Positions 13,366 to 32,507 of a DNA stretch of 45,900 nt are shown in pieces (the stretch's first letter is position 1; every line of letters begins with the position of its first letter). The notes beneath the pieces were generated by a model. That model saw only the letters and a program-made list of their open reading frames with translations, did not search any database and was not told where the DNA came from. The stretch lies in UHGV virus genome UHGV-1347344, one strand, 5' to 3'. Both the position numbers and the translations under genes were made by a program. Source of the stretch: a virus.

Positions 13366-13383
13366 CACCGTGAACAAAGTTCG
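13366..13383 (-). promoter_or_regulatory. late-promoter element copy 1 (CGAACTTTGTTCACGGTG on transcribed strand), tail operon
   Basis: 18-bp motif; CATGAT 21 nt downstream; then GGAGGG and the ATG at 13310. Confidence 0.55.
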
Positions 13384-13384
13384 G

Positions 13385-14173
13385 CTATGCGGCACGGCGA
13401 AGGCGGTACTTGCCCAGCATGTTCAGGTCGTTTTTCAGGGCCAGCCGGAAGGCTTCGATCACGTCGACGTGGTACGCCTTCACGCTCCCGAAACGGCTGT
13501 CCTCGATTTCCCGGATTTCGTAATCCATACGGCGGGACATATCGGAAAGCTTGCGTCCCGCGACGGAGTACGCGGCTGGCGTATCTGCGAAGACGTCAAG
13601 GAACCACGGGATGCCCTTCACGGACTTGTAGTCCCTGCCCCGCCCAAGTTCGTTCTCAAGAGCCGCAGCCTTGCGTACGGCTGCGGAGGCGGTTGCCATT
13701 GCGGTGGCCTCGCGGCGTGAACCAATTTCGGCCTTGGTGCGGATTGCCTCGTCGCGCTCGGCTTCGATGCGCCTGATGGTGTCCTGCGCGACCAGCACGG
13801 CGCGGGCAAGGATGGCTTCGGGGGTATCGTCCGGCTTGGCTATCAGGTAGCCGCCCGTCTTGCGGATGGATGGGATGACCTCATGCGTCACCCACCGCTT
13901 GAACGCCTTGGCTTCGGGCTTGCGGGAACGCAGGATGAGGGAATACAGGCCCGGTTCGGAAATAATTGTCATTTCCTGCTTTCCACCGGGGGTGTCCATA
14001 CTATGGACGCCCTTTTCATCCTCATCCAGAAGTGCAAGGCTTGAACGAGGGTTGCCCATTTCAAGAATATCGCACACGTCTTTCGCCACGAACCATGGTT
14101 GCACCTTGCGCTCAACAACGCGAAGGGAACCGAACTTTTCATGCTCGAAAAGAGCCAAGGGGGAATTTTCCAT
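13385..14173 (-). CDS. phage antirepressor (BRO-N N-terminal domain plus KilAC-like C-terminal domain)
   Basis: Start at 14173 (MENSPLALFEHEKFGSLRVVERKVQPWFVAKDVCDILEM...) is preceded by GGAGGTG. The N-terminus follows the BRO-N pattern. The gene has its own upstream copy of the late-promoter element. Confidence 0.7.
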   Translation of the reverse strand: MENSPLALFEHEKFGSLRVVERKVQPWFVAKDVCDILEMGNPRSSLALLDEDEKGVHSMDTPGGKQEMTIISEPGLYSLILRSRKPEAKAFKRWVTHEVIPSIRKTGGYLIAKPDDTPEAILARAVLVAQDTIRRIEAERDEAIRTKAEIGSRREATAMATASAAVRKAAALENELGRGRDYKSVKGIPWFLDVFADTPAAYSVAGRKLSDMSRRMDYEIREIEDSRFGSVKAYHVDVIEAFRLALKNDLNMLGKYRLRRAA

Positions 14174-14226
14174 CGCTGCACCTCCATAGTGTTTTGGAGA
14201 TGATGCAGCATGGCGGCGTGGGGGCA

Positions 14227-14244
14227 CACCGTGAACAAGGTTCG
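14227..14244 (-). promoter_or_regulatory. late-promoter element copy 2, upstream of antirepressor
   Basis: CGAACCTTGTTCACGGTG; CATCAT 21 nt downstream; then GGAGGTG and the ATG at 14173. Confidence 0.55.
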
Positions 14245-14347
14245 TACAGGCAAAAGAAAAGCCCCTTTCGGGGCGGAGGGCGGCGGCGGTGGATTTTTGG
14301 AACGGCCTATGCCATGATAGCCTCATCTATAATAAGGGGGATGATGT

Positions 14348-14947
14348 ATGGCTACCTACATCAAGTTTCTGGCAGGGGACTACGGGAAAGAAGAATATAT
14401 TTACATTAAGAATAAAAACAAGTTGCGTTGCTCTTCAAAAATGTTTGGAGCAAAGGAACTTTTTCTTTCCAGTATTGCCTCTTGCGAAGTAGCCAATGAA
14501 GAATCGGTCAAAAAGCTCGGCGGAACTTTGGGAGGCGCACTTGTCGGCGGCGTCTTGCTTGGAGGCATCGGAGCGGTTGCGGGTGCGGTAGCTGGAGGCA
14601 AGACGACTGAGTCTACCGTCATTATTGAGTTCAAAAATGGAAATAAGGCATTGGCAAAGGTGAATAGCCCCATGATGGAGGTTATCCGCGCACACCTTTT
14701 TGATGACCAATTGGCCCAAGAGCGTGGAGAACCAAACCCGCTTATACATCATGAACGTTCTCAGACGCCCCCTAAAAAAATTGCCCTTATCATTGGAGTG
14801 CTGATAACAGTAGTGCTAGCCGTATTGTGGCTGAGTTGTGCCCTCCAAACGCCGCCCAATACGAATGGGGCCTTGTTATGGGGAATCCTCACTATCCTTT
14901 CCGGACTGTATTCTTGGAAAACCTATAAGAAAATATATAAATCTTAA
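14348..14947 (+). CDS. glycine-zipper membrane protein (hypothetical)
   Basis: 199 aa with GGTLGGALVGGVLLGGIGAVAGAVAGG (GxxxG zipper) and two C-terminal TM helices. AT-rich codon usage. RBS AAGGGGGA. Confidence 0.5.
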   Translation: MATYIKFLAGDYGKEEYIYIKNKNKLRCSSKMFGAKELFLSSIASCEVANEESVKKLGGTLGGALVGGVLLGGIGAVAGAVAGGKTTESTVIIEFKNGNKALAKVNSPMMEVIRAHLFDDQLAQERGEPNPLIHHERSQTPPKKIALIIGVLITVVLAVLWLSCALQTPPNTNGALLWGILTILSGLYSWKTYKKIYKS

Positions 14948-14982
14948 TATATTAACTTGAATCCGAACAGGGAGAGAGGACC

Positions 14983-15363
14983 ATGGATTTTTCGGAAAGA
15001 ATTGCTGAATTGTCGAAAGTAGAGATAGAGTCCGAAGATACCCCACAAGGAAAAGAGCTGGATTCGCGTATAGTCACCACCGAGGAAGAAAAAGAGGCGT
15101 ATTACCTTGTCAAATCGCTTCTGGTGGGCACCGTTGATCCGGCCCGCGTAGCCATGCGGGACAGCATCAGCTACTGCTCCATCCTTCTTGACGACAACAG
15201 GCTCAAGCCTCTGTGCCGCCTGTATTTCAACGGAAAACAGTGGAGGGTCGGACTGTTTGATGGGGAGAATAAAGACGCAAAGGAAGACATCGAAAAACTG
15301 GAAGATATTATCCCCTTTGCGGATCGAATCCGGGCTACGGCCTTGAAATACGATAACAAGTAA
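14983..15363 (+). CDS. hypothetical acidic cytoplasmic protein
   Basis: 126 aa with RBS GGAGAGAGGA; part of the AT-rich cargo island. Confidence 0.5.
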   Translation: MDFSERIAELSKVEIESEDTPQGKELDSRIVTTEEEKEAYYLVKSLLVGTVDPARVAMRDSISYCSILLDDNRLKPLCRLYFNGKQWRVGLFDGENKDAKEDIEKLEDIIPFADRIRATALKYDNK

Positions 15364-15714
15364 AACTTTCCAACGTGGCGTTGCCCGCCAATGATGAAGA
15401 ACATCCAGATGCGGGCAATGCCACTGCTTTTCTCTTTACATTTTCCGAGTTTTGTGCTGTCTTTTGTGCACGGGCTTCAGAACCCCGTAGGCGGACAAAC
15501 GCCACCCGATAGCATGGCGCTTTTTTATGCCCTTTTTCCAAAGTCAAGAGTTTTTCTTGGCTGTCTTTTGGGCTATTATTGCATCCAATGTTTGCCGGGT
15601 GTGGCGGATATGTCCAAGCGAAAGCTAAAGGCCGCCAGCGGTTCCTACGCCGTTCTGAACACCCGGCGCTTTCTATTTCAGAGAGTGCAATTCAGACAAC
15701 GTAGGAGTTGCATT

Positions 15715-16386
15715 ATGGAAATGGCCCTAATCTTCAACGAATTTATCTTCACGCCTGTCACTCACCAAAACAGTCTCTGGATTCGTTCTTCTGAATTGGC
15801 TAAAGCACTTGGCTATTCCGACGACCGCAAGGTTGGTGTGCTCTATGCCCGACATAAGGATGAATTCTCCAATAATATGAGCGTGGTTCTCAATTTGAGT
15901 ACCACGGATGTACCCGCTATGAATCGCATCTTTTCCCTTCGGGGCTGCCATTTGGTTGCGATGCTAGCGCGTACTCCTATTGCCAAGGCGTTCCGCCGTT
16001 GGGTGCTGGATGTGATTGAACAGTACGGCGACAGGGTGCCCGTTGCCGAACCCGTGACGCTCAACGACGAGCTGATCAGTGCGGCGGAACGTGCCGAGCT
16101 CAAGCTCATCGTAGACGCCAAGCTCTCGACATACCCCGCAGCCGTGCAGGGCAAGGCCCGCGCCGAGATATGGGCGAAGCACAACCGCCACTTCCGCATC
16201 GCGGAATACAGTCAGCTCCCGGCCAGGCTTATGCCCGAGGCCCGCGAGTTCCTGCTTTCCGTCCGCGTCCGCGCCATCAATGCCATACCCACGGCGGAAT
16301 CCGCGATTCCGTACCCTGCGCTTCCCGTCGCATCGTCACTATACCGCGACCGCGTGAGGGAGCTTGAACGGCTCGAACAGGATTAG
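15715..16386 (+). CDS. BRO-N domain protein (antirepressor-like), start refined
   Basis: ATG at 15715 follows AGGAG. Product MEMALIFNEFIFTPVTHQNSLWIRSSELAKALGYSDD... matches BRO-N. The upstream part of the 331-aa track ORF is non-coding-looking. Confidence 0.6.
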   Translation: MEMALIFNEFIFTPVTHQNSLWIRSSELAKALGYSDDRKVGVLYARHKDEFSNNMSVVLNLSTTDVPAMNRIFSLRGCHLVAMLARTPIAKAFRRWVLDVIEQYGDRVPVAEPVTLNDELISAAERAELKLIVDAKLSTYPAAVQGKARAEIWAKHNRHFRIAEYSQLPARLMPEAREFLLSVRVRAINAIPTAESAIPYPALPVASSLYRDRVRELERLEQD

Positions 16387-16635
16387 ATGGAACTTGCAGT
16401 CCTGATCCGCGACCGCGCTTATGGACTGGAACGAGACTTCCGCCGAGTGACGCAAGGAACGTATCCCGAACTGCTCCGGCATGTATCGCCATCCGGGAAG
16501 ACGCCCGTTGACGCGCTTATCCAGCTCATGACAGCCCCAACCTACACCGCCCGGCAAAACCTCGAATCCGCGCTTGATGATATACGTCTTGCCATCCGTG
16601 CCGCGAAGACGGCAAACAGGTTGATGCTAGGGTAA
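16387..16635 (+). CDS. hypothetical protein
   Basis: 82 aa, abutting the stop of the BRO-N gene. Confidence 0.4.
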   Translation: MELAVLIRDRAYGLERDFRRVTQGTYPELLRHVSPSGKTPVDALIQLMTAPTYTARQNLESALDDIRLAIRAAKTANRLMLG

Positions 16636-16651
16636 TCCTTGGCAAGCCTAC

Positions 16652-17002
16652 ATGAATCATATAAGACTTTACCAACGGAGGGATTCCCCCATGCTGCTGT
16701 TCGATGATGGGAAAAAGCTTGAAAAGGCCGTCGGCGAGGAAGCCGCAAAAGCCATCGTGGAAGTACTGGAACGCTTTGACGAGAGTCAAAGGAACGCCAG
16801 TGCCACCAAGGGAGATCTGCGCGAAACGGAACTGCGGTTGCAAAAAGAAATTCGGGAATTGGACCTGAAAGTGCAAGCGGAGATCGAAAAAATTCGTGCT
16901 GAAGTGTTGAAGGTCAAGTATGATCTTTTGAAATGGCAAATCGCCATAGGGTTTGCCCTTGTCGCAGTTATGGCCAAGGGCTTCGGCTGGCTCGGATTCT
17001 AA
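16652..17002 (+). CDS. coiled-coil protein with C-terminal TM helix (XhlA / DUF1640-like)
   Basis: 116 aa; heptad-rich LRETELRLQKEIRELDLKVQAEIEKIRAEVL followed by WQIAIGFALVAVMAKGFGWLGF. Followed by a terminator. Confidence 0.45.
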   Translation: MNHIRLYQRRDSPMLLFDDGKKLEKAVGEEAAKAIVEVLERFDESQRNASATKGDLRETELRLQKEIRELDLKVQAEIEKIRAEVLKVKYDLLKWQIAIGFALVAVMAKGFGWLGF

Positions 17003-17022
17003 TAAAGAAAGAATATCGTAGA

Positions 17023-17060
17023 AAAGGGGTGGCTTTAAGAGCCGCCCCTTTTTGTTTTTC
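17023..17060 (+). terminator. rho-independent terminator
   Basis: aaggggtggct-ttaa-gagccgcccctt stem followed by tttttgttttt. Confidence 0.7.
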
Positions 17061-17102
17061 TGCCTCTCCCTTCTGTTACTGACGAGTTAAAAAAGATAAA
17101 AC

Positions 17103-17147
17103 TTTTTTGAAAAAATTGTTTATTTTTTCAAAAAATGGTGCTATTGT
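17103..17147 (+). promoter_or_regulatory. cassette promoter: 33-bp palindrome (TTTTTTGAAAAAAT-tgttt-ATTTTTTCAAAAAA) plus extended -10 TGcTATTGT
   Basis: Perfect 14-bp inverted arms at 17103..17116 and 17122..17135. TGCTATTGT at 17139..17147. RBS AAAGGAGAG precedes the ATG at 17181. Confidence 0.55.
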
Positions 17148-17180
17148 ATTTTCAACGAAAGGGACAAAAGGAGAGTTCTC

Positions 17181-17537
17181 ATGATAACCATCACCACAGC
17201 CAACAACGAAACAACTCTTGAAAACGACAAGGCTTTCTGTGCATATCGTATCGAAACAGAAATCGATTTTGATGAAGATGGTTATGAAGTGGACGGAGAG
17301 CAATATGTGCTCATCGAAAAGCTTTTTGTTCCCTCAGAAAATCGCGGAAACGGCATTGCCCGCCGCCTTCTTCGTGAAGCCGTCTCTCACGCTCGCGCTA
17401 CTTACCCCAGAATGGCGATTAGGTTGGTAGCTGAACCTCTGGATGCCGATACAGATATGGATCGGCTGGTGGCCTTTTATGAAAGCGAAGGTTTTGATGT
17501 GATCGAAGCTGGCGAAATCGTAGTCATGGAACACTAA
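17181..17537 (+). CDS. small GNAT-family N-acetyltransferase
   Basis: 118 aa with acetyl-CoA binding motif A (LFVPSENRGNGIARRLL). Confidence 0.6.
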   Translation: MITITTANNETTLENDKAFCAYRIETEIDFDEDGYEVDGEQYVLIEKLFVPSENRGNGIARRLLREAVSHARATYPRMAIRLVAEPLDADTDMDRLVAFYESEGFDVIEAGEIVVMEH

Positions 17538-17557
17538 ACAGAACAAAGGAGTAAGAC

Positions 17558-17728
17558 ATGACCCGCTATTCTATCCTGCTCACGACTGGCACAACGGGAA
17601 CCATCGATACCGAACAGCATCTTGAAGAGGGCATGGAAGTAGTCATTACCTTGCACGATGAAAACGGAAACAGAACGCAGGAAACCGGACTCATCGCTGA
17701 AATTCTTGACGAAGAATTTTTAGGGTAA
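17558..17728 (+). CDS. small hypothetical protein (56 aa)
   Basis: Strong RBS AAGGAGTAAGAC before ATG. Product MTRYSILLTTGTTGTIDTEQHLEEGMEVVITLHDENGNRTQETGLIAEILDEEFLG. Below the ORF-track size cutoff. Confidence 0.5.
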   Translation: MTRYSILLTTGTTGTIDTEQHLEEGMEVVITLHDENGNRTQETGLIAEILDEEFLG

Positions 17729-17750
17729 TCGAATTAAAAGGAAAAACACC

Positions 17751-18251
17751 ATGAAGCTATACCACGGAAGCATGATTGAACATCTGGCTATCTCTAACTC
17801 AGGAACAGGGTTAGGGTATAACTTCGGAGCGATGTTCTTTGCCCGTACTTACGGACATGCAAAGGAATACGGAAATTACGTCTACCAGTGCGAAATAGAC
17901 ATCAAGGACATCTTCTTGAACGAGGATCTCCCGTATCTTGAAGATGGCGCTGCTGGAACGGCTCTACGTGAAGTTATGGCAGAGCGCGGTATAGACGAAA
18001 AGTATTTTGATCTCTGCTGGTATGCCGTGGTTGAAGAGAAAATTGGTTATCAAGATGAAGACTGGGTAAACCTCCTCAACATGGACGACGATGACGCAAG
18101 TTGGGAGGCTCAGGCCATGCGGATCGCCTTTGCCCGTAAGCTTGGATTTAAAGCTGTGGAGATGGATGACGAATGCGGCAGCATTGCGGTTCTTCCCGAG
18201 TTCATAAAGCTGGAAGCGTCAACGGAGGAGGACGATGAAGAGGAAGACTAA
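17751..18251 (+). CDS. minimal PARP-like (H-Y-E class) ADP-ribosyltransferase domain protein with polyacidic C-terminus (putative)
   Basis: N-terminus KLYHGSMIEHLAISNSGTGLGYNFGAMFFARTYGHAKEYGNY parallels PARP catalytic LWHGSRTTNFAGILSQGL...[20 protein letters not shown] (H-G-S, then GYxFG..YFA, then Y). Candidate catalytic Glu in CWYAVVEEK. C-terminus STEEDDEEED. Confidence 0.45.
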   Translation: MKLYHGSMIEHLAISNSGTGLGYNFGAMFFARTYGHAKEYGNYVYQCEIDIKDIFLNEDLPYLEDGAAGTALREVMAERGIDEKYFDLCWYAVVEEKIGYQDEDWVNLLNMDDDDASWEAQAMRIAFARKLGFKAVEMDDECGSIAVLPEFIKLEASTEEDDEEED

Positions 18252-19626
18252 GATAGACATCGACGATCTTATCGATTTCAGTTCAAAGCTGGTGAACTCG
18301 AATTCCAGCATCGGTATTCGCTTGTCGTCGGGTGCCGCGCTCTCCCTTCCGTACCTGTCCACGAGGACATGTCTTGCGGCAGGGATTTCTATGCCGCTGG
18401 ATACGGCAAACGGGGCCAAGGATGTGGGAAAAGTAAGTGCTCTATACAAAACACTCGAAGAGGGGGAGGAAGGAGAGAAAGCAGATACAGAGGCGGCATT
18501 GAAGAAAATCCGTAAAACAGGATTTGCTAGAAAAACAGAGTCTGTCGACAGACGGATTCGTCAACTGCTCATTCCTAAAGACGTACCCTCTGGGTATGTC
18601 TCTTTGTCTCCCCTCCCCTCCATTGGACTTTCCGTTTTGCTGTTAGGAGCCGTTACAAGGCATAATCAAGATGTCTTTTCAAAAAAGAAGGAAGGTATCA
18701 AAATTCGACGGGCACATCTCGCTTTGGGCGGGGCAAACCCTCAGAATCTAGGATACGCTGCGTCCAAAAAGGCGATACAATATCCTATTTTTCTTTCTAC
18801 ACCCAAATCCGTGCGCGGAAATGCCAGCCGTCAGGCGTCAGGAAAGGGAACTTACCTGATCCTTTCCAATCTCTTTGTGCAAACGGCAAACATCTTGACG
18901 AATTATACTATGCTCAACGGCGCGCCCCTCTTTGCAGCATGGGGGATGGGACATGCACTGGAGCGCGAGATGCATGGTCCCAAGGTTACCGGAGTATGCC
19001 TTGTTGTGCATAGCATCGAACCCCTTGGGGAGCATGAAACCGCTATTTTCGAGCCTAGCCAAAGATTAGGAGCGGCTTTTACTTTTGAAAAATCCCGTAA
19101 CGGGAGCGACTACGCAAAAGGCTCCACACATCTCTCTTTGCAGCCCGGTGCAACGGGGCATATACGGGTAAGCCTTATCTTTGAACTGTCGGAAGCCCTG
19201 CATTCCGTACCGAACGCCGTGGATCTTTTCTTGAACTTCGGAAAGTTCTCCGGTGGGCTGATCACTTCATACGACGCCCCGGCTTTGCATGATGACCGCT
19301 CTACGCTTCTAGAGTGCATTCCCGCCGGGAAAGTTGTTTTGGATCGGCGCGACGTTATGAGTCCTGGAAACCCCATTGAACAGCTTGTAACCGCGATAGG
19401 AACGTACAGCGGAAAATGGCTGTCCGCAACGAATATCGGTTTTTCAGCAATCACAGACTTTCAAGTTCGCGGAGGGGCACGGAACGGACATCTTCATGCC
19501 TTTGCCGAGCCGCTGATCGGCATTACAGAATACGTCTCTACTGAAAAGAGGATACACGGGTATTTCTGGCGCAGCCAGTGGGAAGAAGATAGCTTTTTGA
19601 TGAGGGGAGATTCAACAAATGAATGA
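18235..19626 (+). CDS. 463-aa protein of unknown function (partner of the ART-like gene)
   Basis: Overlaps the upstream gene by 17 nt and the downstream gene by 8 nt (operonic). No P-loop, HEPN, nuclease or macro motif recognised by eye. Confidence 0.65.
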   Translation: MKRKTKIDIDDLIDFSSKLVNSNSSIGIRLSSGAALSLPYLSTRTCLAAGISMPLDTANGAKDVGKVSALYKTLEEGEEGEKADTEAALKKIRKTGFARKTESVDRRIRQLLIPKDVPSGYVSLSPLPSIGLSVLLLGAVTRHNQDVFSKKKEGIKIRRAHLALGGANPQNLGYAASKKAIQYPIFLSTPKSVRGNASRQASGKGTYLILSNLFVQTANILTNYTMLNGAPLFAAWGMGHALEREMHGPKVTGVCLVVHSIEPLGEHETAIFEPSQRLGAAFTFEKSRNGSDYAKGSTHLSLQPGATGHIRVSLIFELSEALHSVPNAVDLFLNFGKFSGGLITSYDAPALHDDRSTLLECIPAGKVVLDRRDVMSPGNPIEQLVTAIGTYSGKWLSATNIGFSAITDFQVRGGARNGHLHAFAEPLIGITEYVSTEKRIHGYFWRSQWEEDSFLMRGDSTNE

Positions 19627-19840
19627 TGCACAAGAAAAAAAGCAGGGTGGACGCCGTAAAGGATCTGGACGTAAAAAAAGGGTTGAAAATCGTGCAACAG
19701 TAAAGACTGTATCTATGCCGGATCATGTCTGGGAACGGCTGAACGATGTATGTACGGATAGGGGTATCCTACGCTCACAGGTAGTACGGGAAGCAGTCGA
19801 GATGTGGCTGGACGCAAATATACAGCAGCTTGGAAAATGA
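19619..19840 (+). CDS. ribbon-helix-helix (CopG/Arc-like) DNA-binding protein
   Basis: 73 aa with a basic N-terminus, beta-strand ATVKTVSMPDHVWERL then helices SQVVREAVEMWL. Last gene before the terminator. Confidence 0.6.
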   Translation: MNDAQEKKQGGRRKGSGRKKRVENRATVKTVSMPDHVWERLNDVCTDRGILRSQVVREAVEMWLDANIQQLGK

Positions 19841-19857
19841 CGCCTGATACGTAAAGA

Positions 19858-19893
19858 AAGCCCCAACCGTTAAACAGGCGGTTGGGGCTTTCG
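19858..19893. terminator. bidirectional rho-independent terminator between convergent cassette and capsid operon
   Basis: Perfect 10-bp stem gccccaaccg / cggttggggc with a 9-nt loop, flanked by A-run and T-run. Confidence 0.75.
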
Positions 19894-19912
19894 CATGGAG
19901 GGAAGGATGGGA

Positions 19913-20926
19913 CTAGGCTCCAGTCATTTGCGCAAAGGCAAAGGGCATGAGCACGATACCGCCGTAGGTGGTGCCGACGAACTTCTGACGGAAGCTGGAC
20001 AGGTCGGGCACGACGCGTCCGGCACGCATCTTTTCTCCGAAGGCCAGCGTGCCGGATCGCTGCCCGTTCACTTCGGGGGCGATGAGGAACATGTTTTCCC
20101 CGGCGGTCATGCTGTGCAGCTCGGGGACGGTCACGATGTCAATGCGGGTGAAGTACCGCTTCAACATATCCAGCACGGACACGTTGAAATCGGTAGCCGC
20201 GCCGAGGCGAACGGCCAGTTCGGGGGAGAGGCAGAGCTTGAGGGGCGTGTCTTTGTCAATGAGGCCGCTGGACTGCTCGGAAAGCTGCGCGAACAGGATG
20301 AGGACGTCATTGTAGATCTGCACCGTGGTCTTGTCGGCCCATTTCGTGGAGCCGCCCGTGCCCGTGGCCCCTGCGGTGATCGCAGCAGGGAGGTTCGGAT
20401 CGTTAAGGATGCCGTAGATTTCCTTCCCGGCGACTCCGCGCAGGTAGAAACGGTTCTGGTCGATGTCGATGACGTTGGCGGCCGCACGCTGCTTGGAGGC
20501 AGCGAGGTTGACTTTTGCCGTGCTCGACATGTCCACTTCAAAGTCGCCGTAGGTGATGGACGTCTGGAAGACGTACTGCACGCGGGTTTGCCATTCGGAG
20601 TTCACGCCCGAAGTCGTGCCGTTGGCATAGTCGGAATACGGCTCGGTCTTTCCGGTCATTTCGTCCACGCGCCACTTCATGTACGGGGTCGTCCAATCGC
20701 CCTTCTTCTCTTCACCGAAGATTTCACGGGCGCGCCGGGGCGCGGTCAGGATTTCGATGACCATCGGGTCGATATACGCCAGAAGCTCGGCGGGGACGGT
20801 CGTGTTCGGAGTAGTGATGAGCGCGGCGTCCTGCGCAATGCGGGCGCGGTTCTCCGGAGTTGCCCACATGCGGGCGCCCGGGAAGATAAAGCCGTAGCGC
20901 TTGGCCTGTTCAAAAGTCGGATTCAT
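19913..20926 (-). CDS. major capsid protein
   Basis: 337 aa, downstream of the scaffold/protease and decoration genes; lambda E-like size. Confidence 0.7.
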   Translation of the reverse strand: MNPTFEQAKRYGFIFPGARMWATPENRARIAQDAALITTPNTTVPAELLAYIDPMVIEILTAPRRAREIFGEEKKGDWTTPYMKWRVDEMTGKTEPYSDYANGTTSGVNSEWQTRVQYVFQTSITYGDFEVDMSSTAKVNLAASKQRAAANVIDIDQNRFYLRGVAGKEIYGILNDPNLPAAITAGATGTGGSTKWADKTTVQIYNDVLILFAQLSEQSSGLIDKDTPLKLCLSPELAVRLGAATDFNVSVLDMLKRYFTRIDIVTVPELHSMTAGENMFLIAPEVNGQRSGTLAFGEKMRAGRVVPDLSSFRQKFVGTTYGGIVLMPFAFAQMTGA

Positions 20927-20936
20927 GTAGTACCTC

Positions 20937-25847: not shown

Positions 25848-25880
25848 GGGGGCATCATGTTATGAGCGAAGAAGAAAACA

Positions 25881-25898
25881 CACCGTGAACAAGGTTCG
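25881..25898 (-). promoter_or_regulatory. late-promoter element copy 3, upstream of portal/head operon
   Basis: CGAACCTTGTTCACGGTG; CATGAT 21 nt downstream, ending 7 nt before the portal ATG. Confidence 0.55.
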
Positions 25899-25934
25899 GG
25901 TGCATGGATGTCGGACACCTTTCATATTGTATCA

Positions 25935-25980
25935 ATATAGATTAATCTATATATACATGGATACCTTTAGGGAGGTATCC
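25935..25980 (+). promoter_or_regulatory. 18-bp perfect palindrome ATATAGATTAATCTATAT plus RBS-sequestering hairpin upstream of endonuclease I gene
   Basis: Palindrome at 25935..25952. 8-bp stem ggatacct/aggtatcc (25959..25980) encloses the GGAGG RBS; ATG at 25983. Confidence 0.5.
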
Positions 25981-25982
25981 GC

Positions 25983-26729
25983 ATGTACAAAAGCATCATG
26001 GTGTTTTTGCTGGCCGCGCTAGTTATGACGTCCGAGGCGCAGGCCGCGGGCAACGAATGGAACGATTCGTTCAGCAAGGCCAAAAAAACGTTGGAGCGAC
26101 AAATCTATCATGACCACCGGATCACGCTCTACTGCGGGGCGGCGTTCGACGAGAAGAAGAACGTCACCCTCCCGGAGGGTTTTACTGCCGCGAAGCACGA
26201 GAAGCGGGCCGGGAAGGTGGAATGGGAACACGTGGTCCCCGCCGAGAACTTCGGGCAGGCGTTCGCGGAGTGGCGCGAGGGCGACGCGCAGTGCGTGGAC
26301 AACAGGGGAAAGGCGTTCAAAGGCCGCAAGTGTGCCGAGAAGGTCAATAAAGACTATCGGTACATGCAGGCGGACATGTACAACCTGTATCCGGCCATCG
26401 GCGCGGTGAATGCCCTACGCCAGAACTACAACTTTCAGATGTTGCCGGGCGAGGAGCCGGACTTCGGAAGCTGCGGGATGAAGATCGCCGACCGCAGGGC
26501 CGAGCCGCCTATCAGAGCGAGGGGACAGATTGCCCGGACCTACAAGTATATGGCCGACGCCTATGCCCCGCGCTACCGCATGAGCCGCCAGCAGACGCAG
26601 CTCATGGACGCATGGGACAAGATGTATCCGGTTGATGCGTGGGAATGCACGCGGGCCAGACGTATTGAAAGACTACAAGGTAACGAGAACCCTTTTGTGA
26701 AGGAAAGATGTCAAGAAGCAGGACTCTAA
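25983..26729 (+). CDS. endA: secreted endonuclease I (EndA/Dns/Vvn family periplasmic-extracellular DNase)
   Basis: Signal peptide MYKSIMVFLLAALVMTSEAQA followed by the Endonuclease_1 pattern (…YHDHRITLYCGAAF…WEHVVPAENFG…DMYNLYPAIGAVNALR…). Opposite strand to the flanking packaging genes. Confidence 0.75.
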   Translation: MYKSIMVFLLAALVMTSEAQAAGNEWNDSFSKAKKTLERQIYHDHRITLYCGAAFDEKKNVTLPEGFTAAKHEKRAGKVEWEHVVPAENFGQAFAEWREGDAQCVDNRGKAFKGRKCAEKVNKDYRYMQADMYNLYPAIGAVNALRQNYNFQMLPGEEPDFGSCGMKIADRRAEPPIRARGQIARTYKYMADAYAPRYRMSRQQTQLMDAWDKMYPVDAWECTRARRIERLQGNENPFVKERCQEAGL

Positions 26730-26743
26730 CTATTTACATTCAT

Positions 26744-28213
26744 TTATATTCTCCTTCCCATACGTGGATGATTGAGGATGGCGGGGTTGATGCACATAGG
26801 CCGCTTGGTATCGAAATCACGCAGCGCCTGTGTTGTGGCGTCCACTTGGTCGTCGTGGGGCGCACCGGGGAACTGTGTCAGTTCCGCGACGTACTCCCGC
26901 GCCCACGGGCAATGCTCAGGGTGCGGGAGCAGGACGTTCCCGGCCTCGAAGAACGTGGTCACGGCATGGGCCCGGGCCGTCTTGCTGCCGTCCGGCTCCA
27001 CGGGGATGATACCAGGCACAGCATGTTTCAGCGCGTCGATAACCGCCGGGCCGTTGGCCTTATCCTCCACCAGCTTACGGGCTGCGCCGGGCCATTTAGC
27101 GGCGAGCGCCCGGAACGCGGCGACCGTATCCGTAAATCCCATGCGCCGCCGGACCTGATCGAGGAGGTAGCGGTCGGCCCCCTTGCGGCCCCACACCTGC
27201 CCCACAACAAAGTCGGTATCGTCGCCGTCCTTGAACGTCATATCCCACGAGATAAGGAGCTGGTCGAACTGCTCTGGCAGATCTTTGGGGAGCCAGAAGC
27301 GCAACCACTCGGATTTGAAAATGGCGCCGCCGTCTGGCGTAGGCCGCTGCTGGTACAGGGCCTCCCAGTCGCGTGTGCCGAGGGCTTTCTTAATGGCAAG
27401 GAGCTGGCTCAGCGGGTAACGTTCCGGGTGCAGGGCTTCCCCGGCCTTACGATGTGGCTCGTCCGCCGTGGCGATGGCAGGGAAGTCCACCACACGCCAG
27501 TGGTCGCCCTCCCCCCGTGCGGCGGCCTCAAGCAGCCGCCCGGAAAGGTCGGCCATGTGCCAGCGCGTATTGATAATGAGAACCCCCCCGCCGGGCGCGA
27601 GGCGCGTGTACAGCGTGGACGTGTACCAGTCCCAGACGTTCTGGCGGATGGTCGGGGAATCGGCGGATGCCCGGTCTTTGAATGGGTCATCGACGATGAC
27701 GATATGCCCGCCCATGCCCGTGATGCCGCCGCCCACGCCAGCGGAACGGTAGCATCCAGCGTGCCCCACTACCTCGAATATATCTGAGTTGCGGAGGTAG
27801 GAACCGTTCCCCACGGTGCGGATGTTCTTGCCGTACAGCGCCGTGCCGGGAAAGAGTTCCCGGTATTCCGGACTGTCGATGACGCGCTGAACGTCGCGGT
27901 TCATGCGCGAGGACAGGTCGGCGGTGTAGCTCGTGGAAATGACGGATAGATCGGGATAGCGGCCCAAGGCGTAAGCCGGGAAGCGGCGCGAGGCGAGCTC
28001 GCTTTTCCCGTGGCGCGGGGGCATGGTCAGCATGAGGCGCGGGGAACGCCCGGCTACGACATCTGCAAGGAAAGCGTCAAGCTCGGAACAGATTTCCTCA
28101 TGCACCCATCCCATGCAGTAGCCGGGCATGGTGTAGCGCACGAAGGCCGCGAGACAGCTCCGGGCCAGCGCACAACGAATTTCAGCAAGCACCTCACCCG
28201 TCATTCCTCTCAT
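26744..28213 (-). CDS. terminase large subunit
   Basis: 489 aa. ATPase region TMPPRHGKSELASRRFPAYAL (Walker A-like) then a nuclease domain. Preceded by terS. Confidence 0.85.
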   Translation of the reverse strand: MRGMTGEVLAEIRCALARSCLAAFVRYTMPGYCMGWVHEEICSELDAFLADVVAGRSPRLMLTMPPRHGKSELASRRFPAYALGRYPDLSVISTSYTADLSSRMNRDVQRVIDSPEYRELFPGTALYGKNIRTVGNGSYLRNSDIFEVVGHAGCYRSAGVGGGITGMGGHIVIVDDPFKDRASADSPTIRQNVWDWYTSTLYTRLAPGGGVLIINTRWHMADLSGRLLEAAARGEGDHWRVVDFPAIATADEPHRKAGEALHPERYPLSQLLAIKKALGTRDWEALYQQRPTPDGGAIFKSEWLRFWLPKDLPEQFDQLLISWDMTFKDGDDTDFVVGQVWGRKGADRYLLDQVRRRMGFTDTVAAFRALAAKWPGAARKLVEDKANGPAVIDALKHAVPGIIPVEPDGSKTARAHAVTTFFEAGNVLLPHPEHCPWAREYVAELTQFPGAPHDDQVDATTQALRDFDTKRPMCINPAILNHPRMGRRI

Positions 28214-28598
28214 TCTCTTTAAAAGCCTCCCGCGTCAGCTTAAGCAATTCATCGGAGGAAAGATGGGAAAGATCAAGTGCTGGTGCAGGCGACATCGTTC
28301 TATCAGAACTGGAAAGATCAATTTTTTGAATCTCTCGCCATCCCATACGAGTCTTTGCCCAGAAAATAAGAGCGGTTGTGTCACCCGACATAGCTTTGTC
28401 GAAGAGCCGCTTTCCAACTTTCACATTAGCGTTGGTTCTTCCTGTGATAAGCTCCTGCTTATAGAGCTTCACCATCGTATCAACAGACATACCAATCTTT
28501 GCTGCGATTTCATCTTGCGGTACTCCGTATTGAGCCATTGCCTCAACAAGCGCCGCCTTTGTTCCAGATCTTTTTATCGCAGGTCTACCACCGCTCAT
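28194..28598 (-). CDS. terminase small subunit (HTH)
   Basis: 134 aa overlapping terL by 20 nt. HTH-like AAKIGMSVDTMVKLYKQ. Confidence 0.6.
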   Translation of the reverse strand: MSGGRPAIKRSGTKAALVEAMAQYGVPQDEIAAKIGMSVDTMVKLYKQELITGRTNANVKVGKRLFDKAMSGDTTALIFWAKTRMGWREIQKIDLSSSDRTMSPAPALDLSHLSSDELLKLTREAFKENERNDG

Positions 28599-29542
28599 AG
28601 AACGCCTCCGAGCAGGTTGATGTAGTACGGAATCGTTAGTTCAAGCCCCTCATCCAAGCTCGTTGTCGGCTTGAATCCCAAAAGAGCGGACGCTTTTCCA
28701 ATATCAGGAACGCGCCGCGTGGGGTCGTCGTCAGGAATGGGCCGGAATACGATTTTTGATGACGACCTGACTTTTTCGATTATAGTCTTGGCAAGCTCCA
28801 AGATCGTGATTTCTTCGGGGTTTCCAATATTTACCGGACCCGTGATATGACTATCCGACTCCATCAGCCGGACAATCCCTGATATCGTATCGCGCACAAA
28901 ACAAAACGAGCGTGTCTGAGAACCATCCCCGTATACGGTTATATCCTCACCCCGCAAGGCTTGGCAGATGAAGTTAGGAATAACCCGACCATCGTTTATC
29001 GACATCATGGGGCCGTAGGTGTTGAACAGACGCACAACCTTAACCTTGATCCCCTCTTCCCGGTAAAAGTCGAAGAAGAGACTTTCTGCGCAGCGTTTCC
29101 CCTCATCGTAGCAGGCTCGGATGCCGATGGGGTTGACGTTGCCTCTATCAGTCTCTCGCTGAGGCGAAACTAGTGGCTCGCCATATACTTCTGATGTGGA
29201 TGCCTGCAAAACCGTCGCACCATGTACCTTGGCAAGCTCCAGTATATTCAATGCCCCAAGTACGCAGGTCTTTGTAGTCTGAATTGCATTTTTGCCCTGA
29301 TAGTTTAAAGGGCTTGCTGGACATGCGAGATTGTAAATTTCGTCTATATGCTCAGAAGCCTCAAAAGGAGAACAAATATCATGAAGAAAGAACTGAAAGT
29401 TTTTGAGCCGATTGGGGATATTATTAATATTTCCGGTTGAAAGATCGTCTATGCAGATAACCTTGTGTCCTTTTTTAAGCAATTCCCTGCAAAGATGTGC
29501 TCCTAAAAATCCGGCACCACCTGTTACGAGACTTGTTTTCAT
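28595..29542 (-). CDS. uxs: UDP-glucuronate decarboxylase (UDP-xylose synthase family SDR)
   Basis: MKTSLVTGGAGFLGAHLC…NYQGKNAIQTTKTCVLGALNILELAKVHGATVLQASTSEVYG…NPIGIRACYDEGKRCAESLFFDF…VRLFNTYGP closely parallels UXS/ArnA-C (GxxGxxG, YxxxK). Low GC. Confidence 0.85.
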   Translation of the reverse strand: MKTSLVTGGAGFLGAHLCRELLKKGHKVICIDDLSTGNINNIPNRLKNFQFFLHDICSPFEASEHIDEIYNLACPASPLNYQGKNAIQTTKTCVLGALNILELAKVHGATVLQASTSEVYGEPLVSPQRETDRGNVNPIGIRACYDEGKRCAESLFFDFYREEGIKVKVVRLFNTYGPMMSINDGRVIPNFICQALRGEDITVYGDGSQTRSFCFVRDTISGIVRLMESDSHITGPVNIGNPEEITILELAKTIIEKVRSSSKIVFRPIPDDDPTRRVPDIGKASALLGFKPTTSLDEGLELTIPYYINLLGGVL

Positions 29543-30408
29543 GAATCCGCCTTTTGGTATCGAGGGGAAAGGATTTTGGGCGTGCAGTGATTCCAAGAGA
29601 TTTTATGGTGGTATCGCATATACGTATCTTTGAGCGTCGATATTTTCACAGCAGATGGGCACATCATGACAGTATAAAAACTTTTCATATATGTACCATT
29701 TTCAAGATACATATCGGTCAGCCCACCAGCTTGAGATTGTGTCTCAGCTTGATTGATGCACGTATTCCCGAACGAGAAAAACAGCTTGCCCCGATGCCCC
29801 AGAGTGACATACGTGTTAACGTCATCATTCATACGTCCAACGAACTTGAAAGGGCGTAATGTCTTGCAAAAAAACGCGTTCATGGCTTTTCGTTTCACAG
29901 CCAATTTGGGGGAATCAATAGCCCCACCAATGAAATCGCCATTCTGCATAAAGCAGACGCTTAAAGATGGAGTTCTTTCTAAAAAATCTAGATAGGCATC
30001 GAAGACATCATCGAGGCATTGTGGGTATACATATTTCAAGACGCCATCTTTTGCATATCTGTGCTGGAACGAGTCATAATCATCGTCAAGTTCTAAGAAA
30101 AAATCGAGTCCCAAGCCCTCGGCTATTTTGTGACACATATTTCTAGCAAAAAGGACCGTATTTTTCTTCTGGATATTATCACCACGATCAGTAAATCGTG
30201 CTGCATCTTCCTTACAAAAGCGGATCACTTCTTTACCATACCGACGAATATATTCATCACCTGTCGTATCTTCATCATCAATAATGAGGTAAATGGGGCC
30301 TGTATATCCATGCTTTCGGAGTGAACGATATGTTTGCTGATTCTGAGGGCGTCCATACGTAAGTATAAAGCAAGCAAATTTTTCATGCCTCATCGTTCTT
30401 ATCCTCAC
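29539..30408 (-). CDS. putative glycosyltransferase (DxD-type)
   Basis: 289 aa with FILTYGRP and LELDDDYD motifs. 4-bp overlap with the uxs-like gene; AT-rich. Confidence 0.45.
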   Translation of the reverse strand: MRIRTMRHEKFACFILTYGRPQNQQTYRSLRKHGYTGPIYLIIDDEDTTGDEYIRRYGKEVIRFCKEDAARFTDRGDNIQKKNTVLFARNMCHKIAEGLGLDFFLELDDDYDSFQHRYAKDGVLKYVYPQCLDDVFDAYLDFLERTPSLSVCFMQNGDFIGGAIDSPKLAVKRKAMNAFFCKTLRPFKFVGRMNDDVNTYVTLGHRGKLFFSFGNTCINQAETQSQAGGLTDMYLENGTYMKSFYTVMMCPSAVKISTLKDTYMRYHHKISWNHCTPKILSPRYQKADS

Positions 30409-30685
30409 GGATTAAGGCATCTCGAAGTTCATCTATCTGGGAAGAGAGCTCAACAAACCCGTTTTCAATCGCATTATCAATGTCGATGATAACAAGGGCT
30501 GACTGCTCCATAAGTCGCTGCATTTCAGGGGATGCGTTTGCGTAGTACTCTGCGATGTTCTCGTAGTTGAAAACCGTATGCCGATGAGCAGCCGCGAGAA
30601 GAAAGGCTTTTTCTTTCGGAGAAACGGTTGAGTCATGAATGGCCTTTGGCGAGTTCATTATCCTTTGTCTGGTCGTACAGTTCAT
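30383..30685 (-). CDS. hypothetical protein
   Basis: 100 aa, first gene of the low-GC sugar moron; start uncertain. Confidence 0.35.
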   Translation of the reverse strand: MNCTTRQRIMNSPKAIHDSTVSPKEKAFLLAAAHRHTVFNYENIAEYYANASPEMQRLMEQSALVIIDIDNAIENGFVELSSQIDELRDALIREDKNDEA

Positions 30686-31154
30686 CTACGCAAACAGATC
30701 TACCCGTAGGCTCATATATGGGGGTTGTGGCTTTCGCTGTGTACTTATCTTCTACGGGAACATCTTCTTGGGGCTCGAAAAGCTCAGCCTCAAAACCGAT
30801 AAGATCAGTATCAAAATCGGCTAGTTTGAGCTCTTCAAGCTCAAGGGCCAAAAGTTCGTTGTCCCATTCAGCCCAGTTTGCGGACTGATTGGCAAGCAGT
30901 CGAAAAGCCTTGACTTGAACATCACTCAACTCGTCGGCAAGAGCCACAGGGACATCTTTCAAGCCGAGTTTCTGAGCTGCTTTCAGGCGCAGATGTCCAT
31001 CAACGACGGTGCCATCGGACTTAGCGACAATGGGGATACGGAATCCGAACTCCCGGATGGCCGCACACATACGATCAACCTGCGCATCATTTTTGCGCGG
31101 GTTCCTTGCGTAAGGTATCAATCGCTCAATAGGCCATTGCTCGACATTCAGCAT
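30633..31154 (-). CDS. ParB-like nuclease domain protein
   Basis: 173 aa, IERLIPYARNPRKND…VVDGHLRLKAAQKLG (ParB N-terminal / sulfiredoxin-like fold). Confidence 0.65.
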   Translation of the reverse strand: MLNVEQWPIERLIPYARNPRKNDAQVDRMCAAIREFGFRIPIVAKSDGTVVDGHLRLKAAQKLGLKDVPVALADELSDVQVKAFRLLANQSANWAEWDNELLALELEELKLADFDTDLIGFEAELFEPQEDVPVEDKYTAKATTPIYEPTGRSVCVDELYDQTKDNELAKGHS

Positions 31155-31173
31155 TTTTATAGTTCCGAAAAAG

Positions 31174-31449
31174 TTACAGCGTAAAGAACTTCATAATGAG
31201 CGCGCCGAGGCTGCCGGCCGCAGCAGCCACGCCAGCAAGGACGGACAGCCCCCCGGCGCGCTTATTCTCGGCAGCTTCAAGCGCGGCGATACGGACATCC
31301 AGTGCTGCGAGGCGCTTGCCGTGATCCTTGAGCTGCGTAATCACGATGTCGTCGAGGCGCTGGTTGGTGCCCGCGACTTCGGCCTTGAGCCCGGAAAGCT
31401 CGGCCTTCACTTCCCCGATCTCGCGGACAAGCTGCACGTCGTCGTTCAT
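31174..31449 (-). CDS. XhlA-like lysis-associated coiled-coil membrane protein
   Basis: 91 aa: coiled coil plus C-terminal TM (GLSVLAGVAAAAGSLGALIMKFF), inside the lysis cassette. Confidence 0.45.
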   Translation of the reverse strand: MNDDVQLVREIGEVKAELSGLKAEVAGTNQRLDDIVITQLKDHGKRLAALDVRIAALEAAENKRAGGLSVLAGVAAAAGSLGALIMKFFTL

Positions 31450-31769
31450 CTCCCAGCCTCAACGCTCTTGATCCACAGGAGCAGGTTCCCGGCCTCTCCT
31501 GCGGGCAGGTGCACCCACTCGCCGGGCTCGGTGAACGTCTCGCCCCGGTAGGTGTAGGACCACTCACCCGTCACGACGGCCCCCGGCGTCAGAGGAGCCG
31601 GGCTTGTCACGGTGGTCGGCGCCGCCACTGTGCTGCACCCACTCGCCGCCAGCGTCATCACGAACAGCAGCGCGATCAGCCTCGCGGCGTTCGCCGTACC
31701 GTTGACGCAGCCACAGCTTGAGGAGCCCGGCGAGCGATGAAAGGAACTCAAGGACGGCCCGCACATCAC
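31446..31769 (-). CDS. lipoprotein (possible o-spanin-like lysis component)
   Basis: Lipobox LAASGC; true start probably internal or non-ATG. Confidence 0.4.
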   Translation of the reverse strand: MMCGPSLSSFHRSPGSSSCGCVNGTANAARLIALLFVMTLAASGCSTVAAPTTVTSPAPLTPGAVVTGEWSYTYRGETFTEPGEWVHLPAGEAGNLLLWIKSVEAGR

Positions 31770-32056
31770 TTCCCCGTCACGGCCTTGACTTCGGCCTTCA
31801 CGGTTTCGGACTTGCCGTCAGCCACGGCACCCCTATTCTGCCCAAAGTGTGCGGCAAGGGCGTGCGTCCAGCGGTAGAAGACGGCATAAAGCCCGGTCAG
31901 TTCCTTCGGCACGGGCATCCATACGGTGGCCACGGCGCACAGGCCGCACACGGTCATGACCACGCTCAGGGCGGTGACGAGCCACGCCGCATCGGGGTAC
32001 TGCGCGGAAAGGCCCATCAAGGTCGAAAGGATGAAATCAATCACGGTCGCTTCCAT
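31766..32056 (-). CDS. holin-like 2-TM membrane protein, start refined
   Basis: ATG at 32056 overlaps the endolysin stop (TGATG). Product MEATVIDFILSTLMGLSAQYPDAAWLVTALSVVMTVCGLCAVATVW…. Confidence 0.5.
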   Translation of the reverse strand: MEATVIDFILSTLMGLSAQYPDAAWLVTALSVVMTVCGLCAVATVWMPVPKELTGLYAVFYRWTHALAAHFGQNRGAVADGKSETVKAEVKAVTGK

Positions 32057-32442
32057 CAGTACTTGCCTCCATGCTGGTAAAAGGCCACGTCGCGCGGCTT
32101 GTCGGGGTCGTTGTCCACATGGATCCACGTTGGGGCCAGCTCGATGCGCCGGAATCCGACTTCAAGCAGGGCTTGCAGCATGACGAAACGGGAATGGGAA
32201 TCCACGCAGCGGATATCCACGGCATAGCCGCGAGTGTGCGCGGAGGTGGGCACGCCGCCGACCGCCTTGTTGTGCTTCGGGCAGCGGTAGGCGGAAGAAA
32301 GGGGGAACGGGATACCCGCCAGATCACGGGCCTCATCGAGCATCTGGAGCAGATCGGCGTCCATCTTCTCCATGCCCGCGCCGCACCCGCACTTGCAGCG
32401 GAATTCGACCGGGGAGAAGTGGCGCAAGGGAAGAACAGCCAT
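32056..32442 (-). CDS. endolysin, peptidase M15 (L-Ala-D-Glu / D-Ala-D-Ala carboxypeptidase-like)
   Basis: ATG at 32442 preceded by AGGAGG. FSPVEFRCKCGCG… and SAHTRGYAVDI metal-site motifs. Confidence 0.7.
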   Translation of the reverse strand: MAVLPLRHFSPVEFRCKCGCGAGMEKMDADLLQMLDEARDLAGIPFPLSSAYRCPKHNKAVGGVPTSAHTRGYAVDIRCVDSHSRFVMLQALLEVGFRRIELAPTWIHVDNDPDKPRDVAFYQHGGKY

Positions 32443-32489
32443 AAAAAATCCTCCTGCGTCCATTCTCGCACAAGAGAATAGGGGGAGGA

Positions 32490-32507
32490 CACCGTGAACA
32501 AGATTCT
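32490..32507 (-). promoter_or_regulatory. late-promoter element copy 4, upstream of lysis/packaging operon
   Basis: AGAATCTTGTTCACGGTG; GAGAAT 22 nt downstream; then AGGAGG and the ATG at 32442. Abuts the stop of the Mor-like gene. Confidence 0.55.

Follow-up and report, generated by a model that had tools for sequence, protein, structure and literature searches.

The activators Mor and C of phage Mu bind 16-bp dyads centred at -43.5, at promoters that have no -35 element (PMC4390567, PMC2582627); it is a Mor dimer that binds the two inverted repeats of its 16-bp element, centred at that same position (PMC4390567). The DNA considered here is the 45,900-nucleotide (nt) virus genome UHGV-1347344 (‘the window’), an integrase-type, non-transposable temperate prophage of Bilophila wadsworthia. 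It carries four copies of an 18-bp element, each followed at nearly constant distance by a -10-like hexamer, and one gene for a 122-aa helix-turn-helix (HTH) protein that resembles Mor. The best account of the four 18-mers, at a probability of about three in four, is that they would be the binding sites of this protein, at activator-dependent late promoters without a -35. The arrangement would add one more case to a kind of phage gene regulation already described, and it is supported by comparison of related phages.

One way to place this arrangement is to set it beside that of Mu C. In both cases the gene for a small HTH activator is directly followed by the lysis promoter and then by the endolysin gene, and the junction has a terminator, in the window a probable one; Mu shows C stop codon, terminator, Plys and endolysin in the order found in the window, and the Mu annotation puts terminators after mor and after C. 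Both have several dispersed late promoters with a -10 and without a -35, at which a site of about 16-18 bp overlaps the -35 region; the site centre is close to -43.5 in Mu (PMC2582627), and in the window phage it falls between about -42.5 and -45, counted from a predicted start site (+1). Late control takes in a DNA-modification function in Mu and, it is likely, in the window phage too. The stop codon of the window gene abuts a promoter that its product is predicted to activate, as at Mor and Pm, but Mor has one promoter and one further activator under its control, whereas the window protein appears to control all late blocks. Unlike Mu, the window has one activator tier and not Mor followed by C; the phage is a temperate myovirus of the integrase/RecT type, not transposable; and of its promoters one is apparently leaderless and one lies inside a probable terminator. 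The sequence-only reading with which this work began took the four promoters as a close parallel to Mu's four. That parallel falls away: relatives have other numbers and classes of promoter, so that the number four is incidental.

Other phages offer looser comparisons. The position of the gene, past RusA/NinG-type genes and ahead of the lysis genes, and its proposed role as a master late switch are those of lambda Q; however, Q antiterminates from one constitutive promoter, whereas the window has several promoter-like units and a protein of an unrelated family. P2 Ogr and P4 Delta, and RinA, ArpU and LtrC of Gram-positive phages, are also small late activators that work with the host polymerase, serving several operons (P2) or one (RinA), and belong to protein families unrelated to the window activator. 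The P2 sites, TGT-N12-ACA near -55, differ from those of the window in position as well. RinA family members are late activators that use the host polymerase (PMC3152322, PMC3753634). The present comparison suggests that Mu-type late control, with a small activator near -43 and no -35, extends to integrase-type phages of the Desulfovibrionaceae, in the place where lambda uses Q.

The pattern (C/A)GAA(C/T)(C/T)TTGTTCACGGTG, equivalently MGAAYYTTGTTCACGGTG, has exactly four matches in the window, all on the minus strand and at the positions first reported for it (Table 1); shuffled sequences give an expectation of 0.00, and allowing up to three mismatches to the 18-mer adds no site (0.17 expected). 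All four are intergenic and on the late strand only, and each stands ahead of the first gene of a late block, as the sequence-only reading had it. That reading also had the activator gene ending at the fourth copy, and its stop codon does overlap the first two bases of that copy. The dyad GAAC-N3-GTTC proposed for the element fared less well: three copies contain it, while the fourth has GAAT-N3-GTTC. Judged from sequence, what stays invariant is a core on the promoter-proximal side, (T)GTTCACGGTG. The position of the left GAA is less strict, which leaves the site as a whole asymmetric and not a clean dyad. In this it differs from the Mu element, the promoter-proximal half being invariant and the distal half loose. 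Symmetry, weak in the window phage, is clear in two relatives (L133 and L136).

The hexamers lie 21, 21, 21 and 22 nt past the elements, in agreement with the 21-22 nt first noted. Each matches TATAAT at four of six positions, A2 and T6 included, and the seventh base past the hexamer is A at all four sites. Hexamers of this quality (at least four of six, with A2 and T6) occur at the same offset from 1.9% of minus-strand positions, which gives a chance probability of about 1e-7 for four out of four if the sites are independent. None of the four gave a -35/-10 promoter in a scan with the sigma-70 consensus. When +1 is set at the seventh base past the hexamer, the 18-mer runs from -51 to -34, with its middle at -42.5; that of GAAC-N3-GTTC falls at -45, and that of the L133 palindrome, described below, at -44.5; the proposed Mor/C-like geometry, near -43.5 and without a -35, is consistent with these values. 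Two candidate features were set aside. TTGTTC as a -35 would be 27 nt from the hexamer, with no conserved -10 at 17 nt downstream; and an extended -10 is not general, since TG is present in all lysis-class and some tail-class promoters and missing from the portal and Bro-N promoters.

The downstream side of the hexamers provides a separate line of evidence. The four start codons chosen in the sequence-only reading (13310, 14173, 32442 and, for the portal gene, 25847) are all ATG; three have GGAGG-type ribosome-binding sites, and the portal ATG has no leader. In the portal class of the relatives, CAT(G/T)AT is followed by exactly six variable nucleotides and then ATG, with five different versions of the six. 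An in-frame TAA directly ahead of the portal hexamer leaves ATG 25847 as the only start codon upstream of codon 17, and the portal gene of relatives has in-frame indels at codons 13-16. Hexamer-N6-ATG also precedes real open reading frames (ORFs), of 125 aa in L125 and of 422 aa in L133. Past the second site of L126 and that of L130 the same arrangement leads only to ORFs of 22-35 aa, and these were not counted as leaderless cases. The portal mRNA is probably leaderless, as had been suspected, with its predicted +1 at the A of the ATG. Hexamer-N6-ATG is the canonical leaderless geometry, and so gives independent support to the hexamer as a -10. At the lysis promoter the corresponding arrangement is hexamer-N6-AGGAGG, found in 14 of 15 distinct junctions from five activator lineages; the remaining one, L132, has hexamer-N6-ACAGGAGG, with two extra bases. 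The +1 of the lysis class would then coincide with the start of the ribosome-binding site or lie just ahead of it; in the window the predicted +1 (32455) is the first base of AGGAGG.

Close relatives keep both the activator and the element. Fourteen activator homologues with 69-99% identity were found, every one of them metagenomic; a 99%-identical protein is encoded on a contig of B. wadsworthia ATCC 49260 (NZ_JNJP01000012.1), in a prophage that is a mosaic relative of the window. In that prophage, and in three contigs with 75-79% identical activators, the element lies past the activator stop codon and ahead of an endolysin gene, which among the relatives encodes an M15 peptidase or a lysozyme; the same site follows the activator stop in L001-L014, L037, L123 and others. 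The element is found ahead of the portal gene too, past varied opposite-strand inserts, and in L011 ahead of a baseplate gene, always on the late strand. IMG/VR was scanned with the 16-mer core of the element, and 109 stretches were returned. About two-thirds are relatives, with lysis, portal, Bro-N and tail classes and two further classes; the other third are chance matches on unrelated contigs, excluded by their context. Inside each promoter class no variation is seen in the 18-mer or in the hexamer; the 21-nt spacer does vary, and upstream of base 1 the relatives have unrelated DNA. Site 3 (portal) is kept in 21 distinct relative sequences, again with unrelated DNA upstream; site 2 (Bro-N) in 20, or 17 under stricter grouping; and site 1 (tail) is kept even where Bro-N is not directly upstream. 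The motif search of the whole genome and of related phages, which the sequence-only reading had proposed, thus leaves four window sites and an element kept in activator-sharing relatives. Its loss from such relatives, which would have spoken against these promoters, was not seen: the element is at the same places in all of them.

The two further classes, absent from the window, occur in L051, L054 and L059, and both have G changed to A at the last base of the site. One (CGAACCTTGTTCACGGTA, 22 nt, TATCCT) precedes a 90-aa ORF of unknown function; the other (CGAATCTTGTTCACGGTA, 21 nt, CATGCT) precedes a sheath-initiator/baseplate gene, whose window homologue (approximately 2952-3215, 37% identity) has no site of its own.

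More distant relatives change activator and site together. A profile search gathered about 1000 members of the activator family, and 12 loci were taken from IMG/VR. Their activators show 40-69% identity to P0015, the sequence that heads the query alignment A4 and that shares 55% identity with the window activator. The distant activators (40-55% identity) go with altered sites. The clade at 55% identity (L125-L131) has GAA-N4/5-GTTCAGGGT(G/A) as its site, with CATGGT, CACAGT, CATAGT, CATGCT, CATTGT or CAAGGT after 21 nt; the genes downstream of it are the same M15 endolysin gene and one other. L133, 44% identical to the query, has a perfect palindrome, (TA)CCCTGAA-N4-TTCAGGG(TA), or CCCTGAA-N4-TTCAGGGTA, in two copies between which the central four bases are inverted; CATACC or CATGGT follows after 21 nt. 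L132 has GACGGAA-CTTC-TTCCGGGGA (GACGGAA-N4-TTCCGGGGA), with CAGTGT after 21 nt, and L136 has two copies of CCCGGAA-N4-TTCCGGGCA. The 21-nt distance and A2 of the hexamer are kept at every distant site except one (position 2247 of L136), and T6 is kept in all hexamers except CATACC.

These sites also bear on a reading in which the element is recognised not by a bound activator but by an alternative sigma or sigma-like subunit: a host extracytoplasmic function (ECF) sigma factor, sigma-54, or the 122-aa protein itself acting as a mimic of sigma region 4. This is improbable. The core GTTCACGGTG ends 21 nt ahead of the hexamer, which puts about 25 nt between core and -10, too far for a -35/-10 pair of the sigma-70 family, and the palindromic sites of L133 and L136 are what a dimeric activator would be expected to use. 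The specific forms ECF GAAC...CGTC and sigma-54 GG-N10-GC were rejected on inspection: there is no CGTC-type -10 at 16-17 nt past GAAC and no GG-N10-GC that is conserved across the four sites.

A second perspective would make the 18-mers sites of repression. Stoperators, described for mycobacteriophage L5, are repressor sites that act in one orientation, and a lysogen's repressor bound to such sites would block read-through into the late genes. The window elements do look the part, in being few, asymmetric, intergenic and in one orientation relative to transcription. The relatives separate the two possibilities. L007 (clade-A activator, TTCACGG or C-variant site) and L127 (clade-B activator, TTCAGGG or G-variant site) share a 97%-identical CI-like repressor, which in L006 and L007 is the same protein; the window has the C-variant, clade-A site, yet has no homologue of this repressor. 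As a 97%-identical repressor occurs with both variants, the site variant tracks the activator allele and not the CI-like repressor. Nor does a roadblock need the promoter features seen here: a hexamer at 21 nt, hexamer-N6-ATG, hexamer-N6-AGGAGG. Stoperators are accordingly a quite improbable explanation. In the predicted recognition helix, within this sample, TTRY goes with TTCACGG, and TERY with TTCAGGG and TTCCGGG; this association of C or G with TTRY or TERY represents a single evolutionary event, and is only suggestive. Placement on the late strand, conservation together with the activator, the 21-nt spacing, the tracking of activator alleles and the lack of a -35 all argue for activator-dependent late promoters, as first proposed.

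The activator protein is alone in the window in being Mor-like. All its homologues have 122 aa and begin at the same Met. A published account of the Mor/C family (bioRxiv 10.1101/2025.05.02.651988) gives its members a length of about 120-140 aa, an N-terminal region that is acidic and serves dimerisation, a conserved strand linker (GG-x-x-YIP) and, towards the C-terminus, a basic HTH with a short tail. The window protein fits this description in size and in its acidic N-terminus (D3, E10, E13, D17), strand, three-helix HTH (residues 74-110), basic C-terminus and tail; with Mor it shares the strand linker, the C-terminal HTH and the Q-x-x-LL tail (QQYRLL here, against QPSLL in Mor and QPDLF in C). 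Its predicted strands, CGGRSYFIP and FGGMQIVVP, are of the type GG-x-x-Y-(I/V)-P. The difference is that the helix-GG-strand unit is present twice. The Mor model aligns to about residues 10-39 or 44-111, depending on the family member, so that the unit appears to be duplicated relative to Mor. The two units in the window protein are residues 10-39 and 44-72, ILCAQCGGRSYFIP and ALCTEFGGMQIVVP. Pfam assigns HTH_23 (1.2e-5) and Mor (PF08765; 21.1 bits, E 3.3e-4); at E<=0.01 the Mor model matches 10 of the 13 close homologues (the best at 1.1e-7), and at E<=1e-3 it matches 72 of the 88 members of the wider family (the best at 4e-12), with individual relatives scoring 21-29 bits. Deposited phage genomes held no close homologue; the protein search against them gave only gp6 of EBPR siphovirus 4, at 32% identity and annotated as hypothetical.

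Several points weigh against this picture and should be set beside it. The score of the window protein is below the Pfam gathering cut-off of 24.9 bits, and those of its relatives fall on both sides; a profile of close homologues found no Mor chain among PDB sequences; and hhalign of the 88-sequence family against Mu Mor and C gave 57% probability (E 1e-4) over 38 columns, in the HTH and tail only. Similarity to Mu C is thus marginal. As for the promoters, the window hexamers begin with C or G and not T; the four sites may be paralogous copies, in which case the chance figure given above overstates their independence; the first copy in L136 (2247) has no hexamer at 21 nt; the second sites of L126 and L130, leading to short ORFs only, are off the geometry; and the lysis hexamers GAGAAT, GAGAGT and GAGGGT pair within the hairpin considered below, which gives their conservation a second possible cause. 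The assignment to the Mor family made in the sequence-only reading holds through the matches of the wider relatives and the shared motifs; the window protein by itself is under the cut-off and gave no fold match to the Mor crystal structure 1RR7. The protein is therefore treated as a divergent branch of the Mor family, by transitive sequence similarity and shared motifs.

The elements observed, with their conservation, geometry and co-variation, suggest the following mechanism. The activator, encoded by the last gene of the early operon, would accumulate and then bind each site, probably as a dimer or higher oligomer; bound there it would overlap the -35 region and recruit host RNA polymerase of the sigma-70 type, and transcription would begin 7 nt past the hexamer. 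Activation at Mor/C-dependent promoters calls for the host sigma-70 holoenzyme, with contacts to the alpha-CTD and to sigma region 4. The lysis promoter (P_lys) would drive the endolysin gene, the DNA-modification cassette and terminase; the portal promoter would drive the portal and head genes, as a leaderless mRNA; a third promoter would serve the Bro-N gene, and a fourth the genes for neck and tail. The hairpin and U-run of the lysis junction would probably stop or mask early read-through RNA, while late RNA would start in the 3' arm, at the ribosome-binding site. Late transcripts that begin inside the 3' arm would escape the hairpin.

In every lineage the site is separated from the endolysin AUG by a hairpin with a U-run. 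The window hairpin has a folding energy of -19 kcal/mol (z -2.4), and those of relatives have z scores of -2.75 (L001), -4.0 (L128), -5.3 (L133) and -6.0 (L132). By eye, the arms change together (ATTCTC/GAGAAT, CCCTC/GAGGG, TTCTC/GAGAG); RNAalifold, run on 15 lysis junctions, found no consensus structure or common register, so that these changes are not formal covariation and the hairpin is argued from individual folds and inspection by eye. It is a probable terminator, or a structure masking the ribosome-binding site, for early read-through transcripts. A wider proposal joins two parts: that the junction of about 45 nt between activator and endolysin genes is a terminator or masking hairpin with the late -10 inside it, which late mRNAs escape by starting at the ribosome-binding site; and that the activator represents a Mor-like subfamily, with a duplicated helix-strand unit and an asymmetric site, that replaced Q in integrase-type phages. 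This is offered tentatively, the odds being somewhat against it. Separately, the stretch from the Bro-N site to its AUG (14168-14229, minus strand) folds at -25.7 kcal/mol (z -3.45), the hexamer region pairing with the ribosome-binding site and AUG; the 5' arm of this fold would be absent from a transcript begun at the predicted +1, as at the lysis junction.

The hairpin at the junction, present in all lineages, and the gene order RusA, small regulator, lysis genes would also suit a different protein: a Q-like antiterminator, with the 18-mer as its loading site, that modifies polymerase to read through the terminator before the endolysin gene. Only one of the four sites, however, is followed by a terminator-like hairpin with a U-run. 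No significant hairpin separates the portal site from its start codon (z -0.24), the tail site folds no better than shuffles (z +0.25), and only the Bro-N site, as just described, folds as well. The scan showed no sigma-70 promoter at or upstream of any site for such a polymerase to start from; at the portal gene the ATG follows the hexamer after N6; antitermination has no need of four or more dispersed sites per genome; and the family is related to Mor, not Q. A Q-like role is on these grounds very unlikely. Least likely of all is that the repeats are recombination boundaries at module junctions, or duplicated ends of inserts, with no part in transcription: conservation does begin abruptly at base 1-2 of the 18-mer, beyond which relatives are unrelated, and the sites do lie at mosaic joints beside inserted genes, but 18 bp is very short for homologous exchange, and the fixed hexamer distance, the strand bias and the co-variation of site and activator at 40-55% identity are left unexplained.

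Table 1. Late-control elements and surrounding genes of the window; roles of sites, hexamers and hairpins are predicted
Feature	Position	Strand	Remarks
First neck/tail operon gene	12897-13310	-	Followed by DUF4054, collar, neck terminator, DUF3383 sheath and tape-measure genes
P_tail -10-like hexamer CATGAT	13339-13344	-	21 nt past site 1; predicted +1 A 13332; ATG 13310 after GGAGGG
Site 1, CGAACTTTGTTCACGGTG	13366-13383	-	Predicted activator site, neck/tail promoter; 1 nt past Bro-N stop codon
Bro-N domain gene	13385-14173	-	Bro-N 1e-24; flanked by sites 2 and 1
P_bro -10-like hexamer CATCAT	14200-14205	-	21 nt past site 2; predicted +1 A 14193; ATG 14173
Site 2, CGAACCTTGTTCACGGTG	14227-14244	-	Predicted activator site, Bro-N gene promoter
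Terminator-like hairpin GCCCCGAAAGGGGC and T-run	14261-14274	-	Directly upstream of site 2
Low-GC island, 5.5 kb	14348-19840	+	Between capsid and Bro-N/neck genes
Major capsid protein gene	19913-20926	-	Pfam
Portal gene	24300-25847	-	Phage_portal_3; followed by MuF-like, DUF2213 and major capsid genes
Portal -10-like hexamer CATGAT	25854-25859	-	21 nt past site 3; 6 nt, then portal ATG 25845-25847
Site 3, CGAACCTTGTTCACGGTG	25881-25898	-	Predicted activator site, portal/head promoter; predicted -51 to -34
Endonuclease I (EndA-like) gene	25983-26729	+	3e-29; between terminase and portal genes, opposite to late strand
Large terminase gene	26744-28213	-	Pfam
NAD-dependent epimerase/dehydratase gene	28595-29596	-	1e-49; in low-GC cassette
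TET-associated glycosyltransferase gene	29539-30408	-	5.8e-36; in low-GC cassette
ParB_N / type II methyltransferase N-domain protein gene	30633-31154	-	In low-GC cassette
Peptidase M15 endolysin gene	32056-32442	-	Peptidase_M15_3 5.7e-16; first gene from P_lys
Hairpin and U-run	32448-32490	-	Directly ahead of endolysin AUG; U-run at 32443-32448; hexamer inside, 3' arm is the ribosome-binding site
P_lys -10-like hexamer GAGAAT	32462-32467	-	22 nt past site 4; preceded by TGc (extended -10); predicted +1 A 32455
Site 4, AGAATCTTGTTCACGGTG	32490-32507	-	Predicted activator site of P_lys (lysis/DNA-modification/terminase); predicted -52 to -35
Activator gene, 122 aa	32506-32874	-	ATG 32874, stop TAG 32506-32508; last early-operon gene, after RusA
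RusA gene	33299-33865	-	Pfam; early operon, ahead of activator gene

Pfam scans of the window identify a tyrosine integrase, RecT, a PDDEXK nuclease, RusA, a T4-type large terminase and a complete late region on the minus strand, and among about 50 of the largest ORFs so scanned there was no match to a transposase; integrase, RecT and nuclease mark a temperate phage of the integrase type, as opposed to a transposable phage like Mu. Scans of the window for Rfam families and for tRNAs gave no hit, and a megablast search of 22 kb of it against deposited phages gave no match. The four sites sit where late transcription must begin or restart: past the activator gene, past the Endonuclease I insert, past the island and past Bro-N. 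Several promoters are needed because inserts on the opposite strand split the late region into blocks. In relatives the slot occupied here by Endonuclease I holds, on the opposite strand, a ParA-like ATPase gene, another Endonuclease I gene or an unknown 208-aa gene, which makes the interval between terminase and portal genes an insertion hotspot just upstream of the portal promoter. The Bro-N gene is probably an inserted accessory gene (a moron) with a duplicated promoter. Pairs of sites 828, 861 or 876 bp apart flank the same gene in relatives, and the Bro-N and tail promoters share the sequence CAT(G/C)AT(G/C)(A/T)CCAAAACA, but not the spacer (13339-13360 and 14200-14221, minus strand); the common sequence past the hexamer suggests that Bro-N came, or spread, with a duplicated tail promoter.

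The practical value of the element lies first in a testable map of the late units (four promoters, their predicted start sites, one master activator) in a prophage family common in human gut B. wadsworthia; since the cultured strain ATCC 49260 carries a close relative, experiments are possible. The natural series of activator and site variants is material for studying the specificity of DNA recognition in the Mor family. The sites also fix gene starts, including that of the probably leaderless portal gene, and mark where opposite-strand accessory genes have entered the late region.

Within the lysis-terminase late operon, positions 28595-31154 (minus strand) form a cassette low in guanine plus cytosine (low-GC; 44-51%), likely a DNA hypermodification module under late control; it is found also in L008 and L009 and not in the other relatives. 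The low-GC island at 14348-19840 holds a second Bro-N protein and a weak ART-PolyVal match, together with a 463-aa ORF (18235-19626, plus strand) that resembles a fusion of Cas8f and Cas5f: PADLOC finds Cas8f at residues 10-193 (1.3e-20) and Cas5f at residues 208-453 (1.8e-21), and Pfam finds Cas_Csy2 (1.3e-10). No Cas7f, Cas6f or Cas3 was recognised beside it. As a lone type I-F Cascade subunit carried by a prophage, it could act as a decoy or as an anti-CRISPR (clustered regularly interspaced short palindromic repeats) device, or be what remains of a larger system. In L125 (IMGVR_UViG_2562617176_000006), at least 11 repeats (GTTATCCGCCGCGTAGGCGGTTTAGAAG) with a period of 60 bp form a CRISPR-like array at positions 949-1572, and the same contig has a related activator with late promoters. 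Taken with the ORF that resembles Cas8f and Cas5f, the array hints at an interplay with type I-F CRISPR systems in this phage group.

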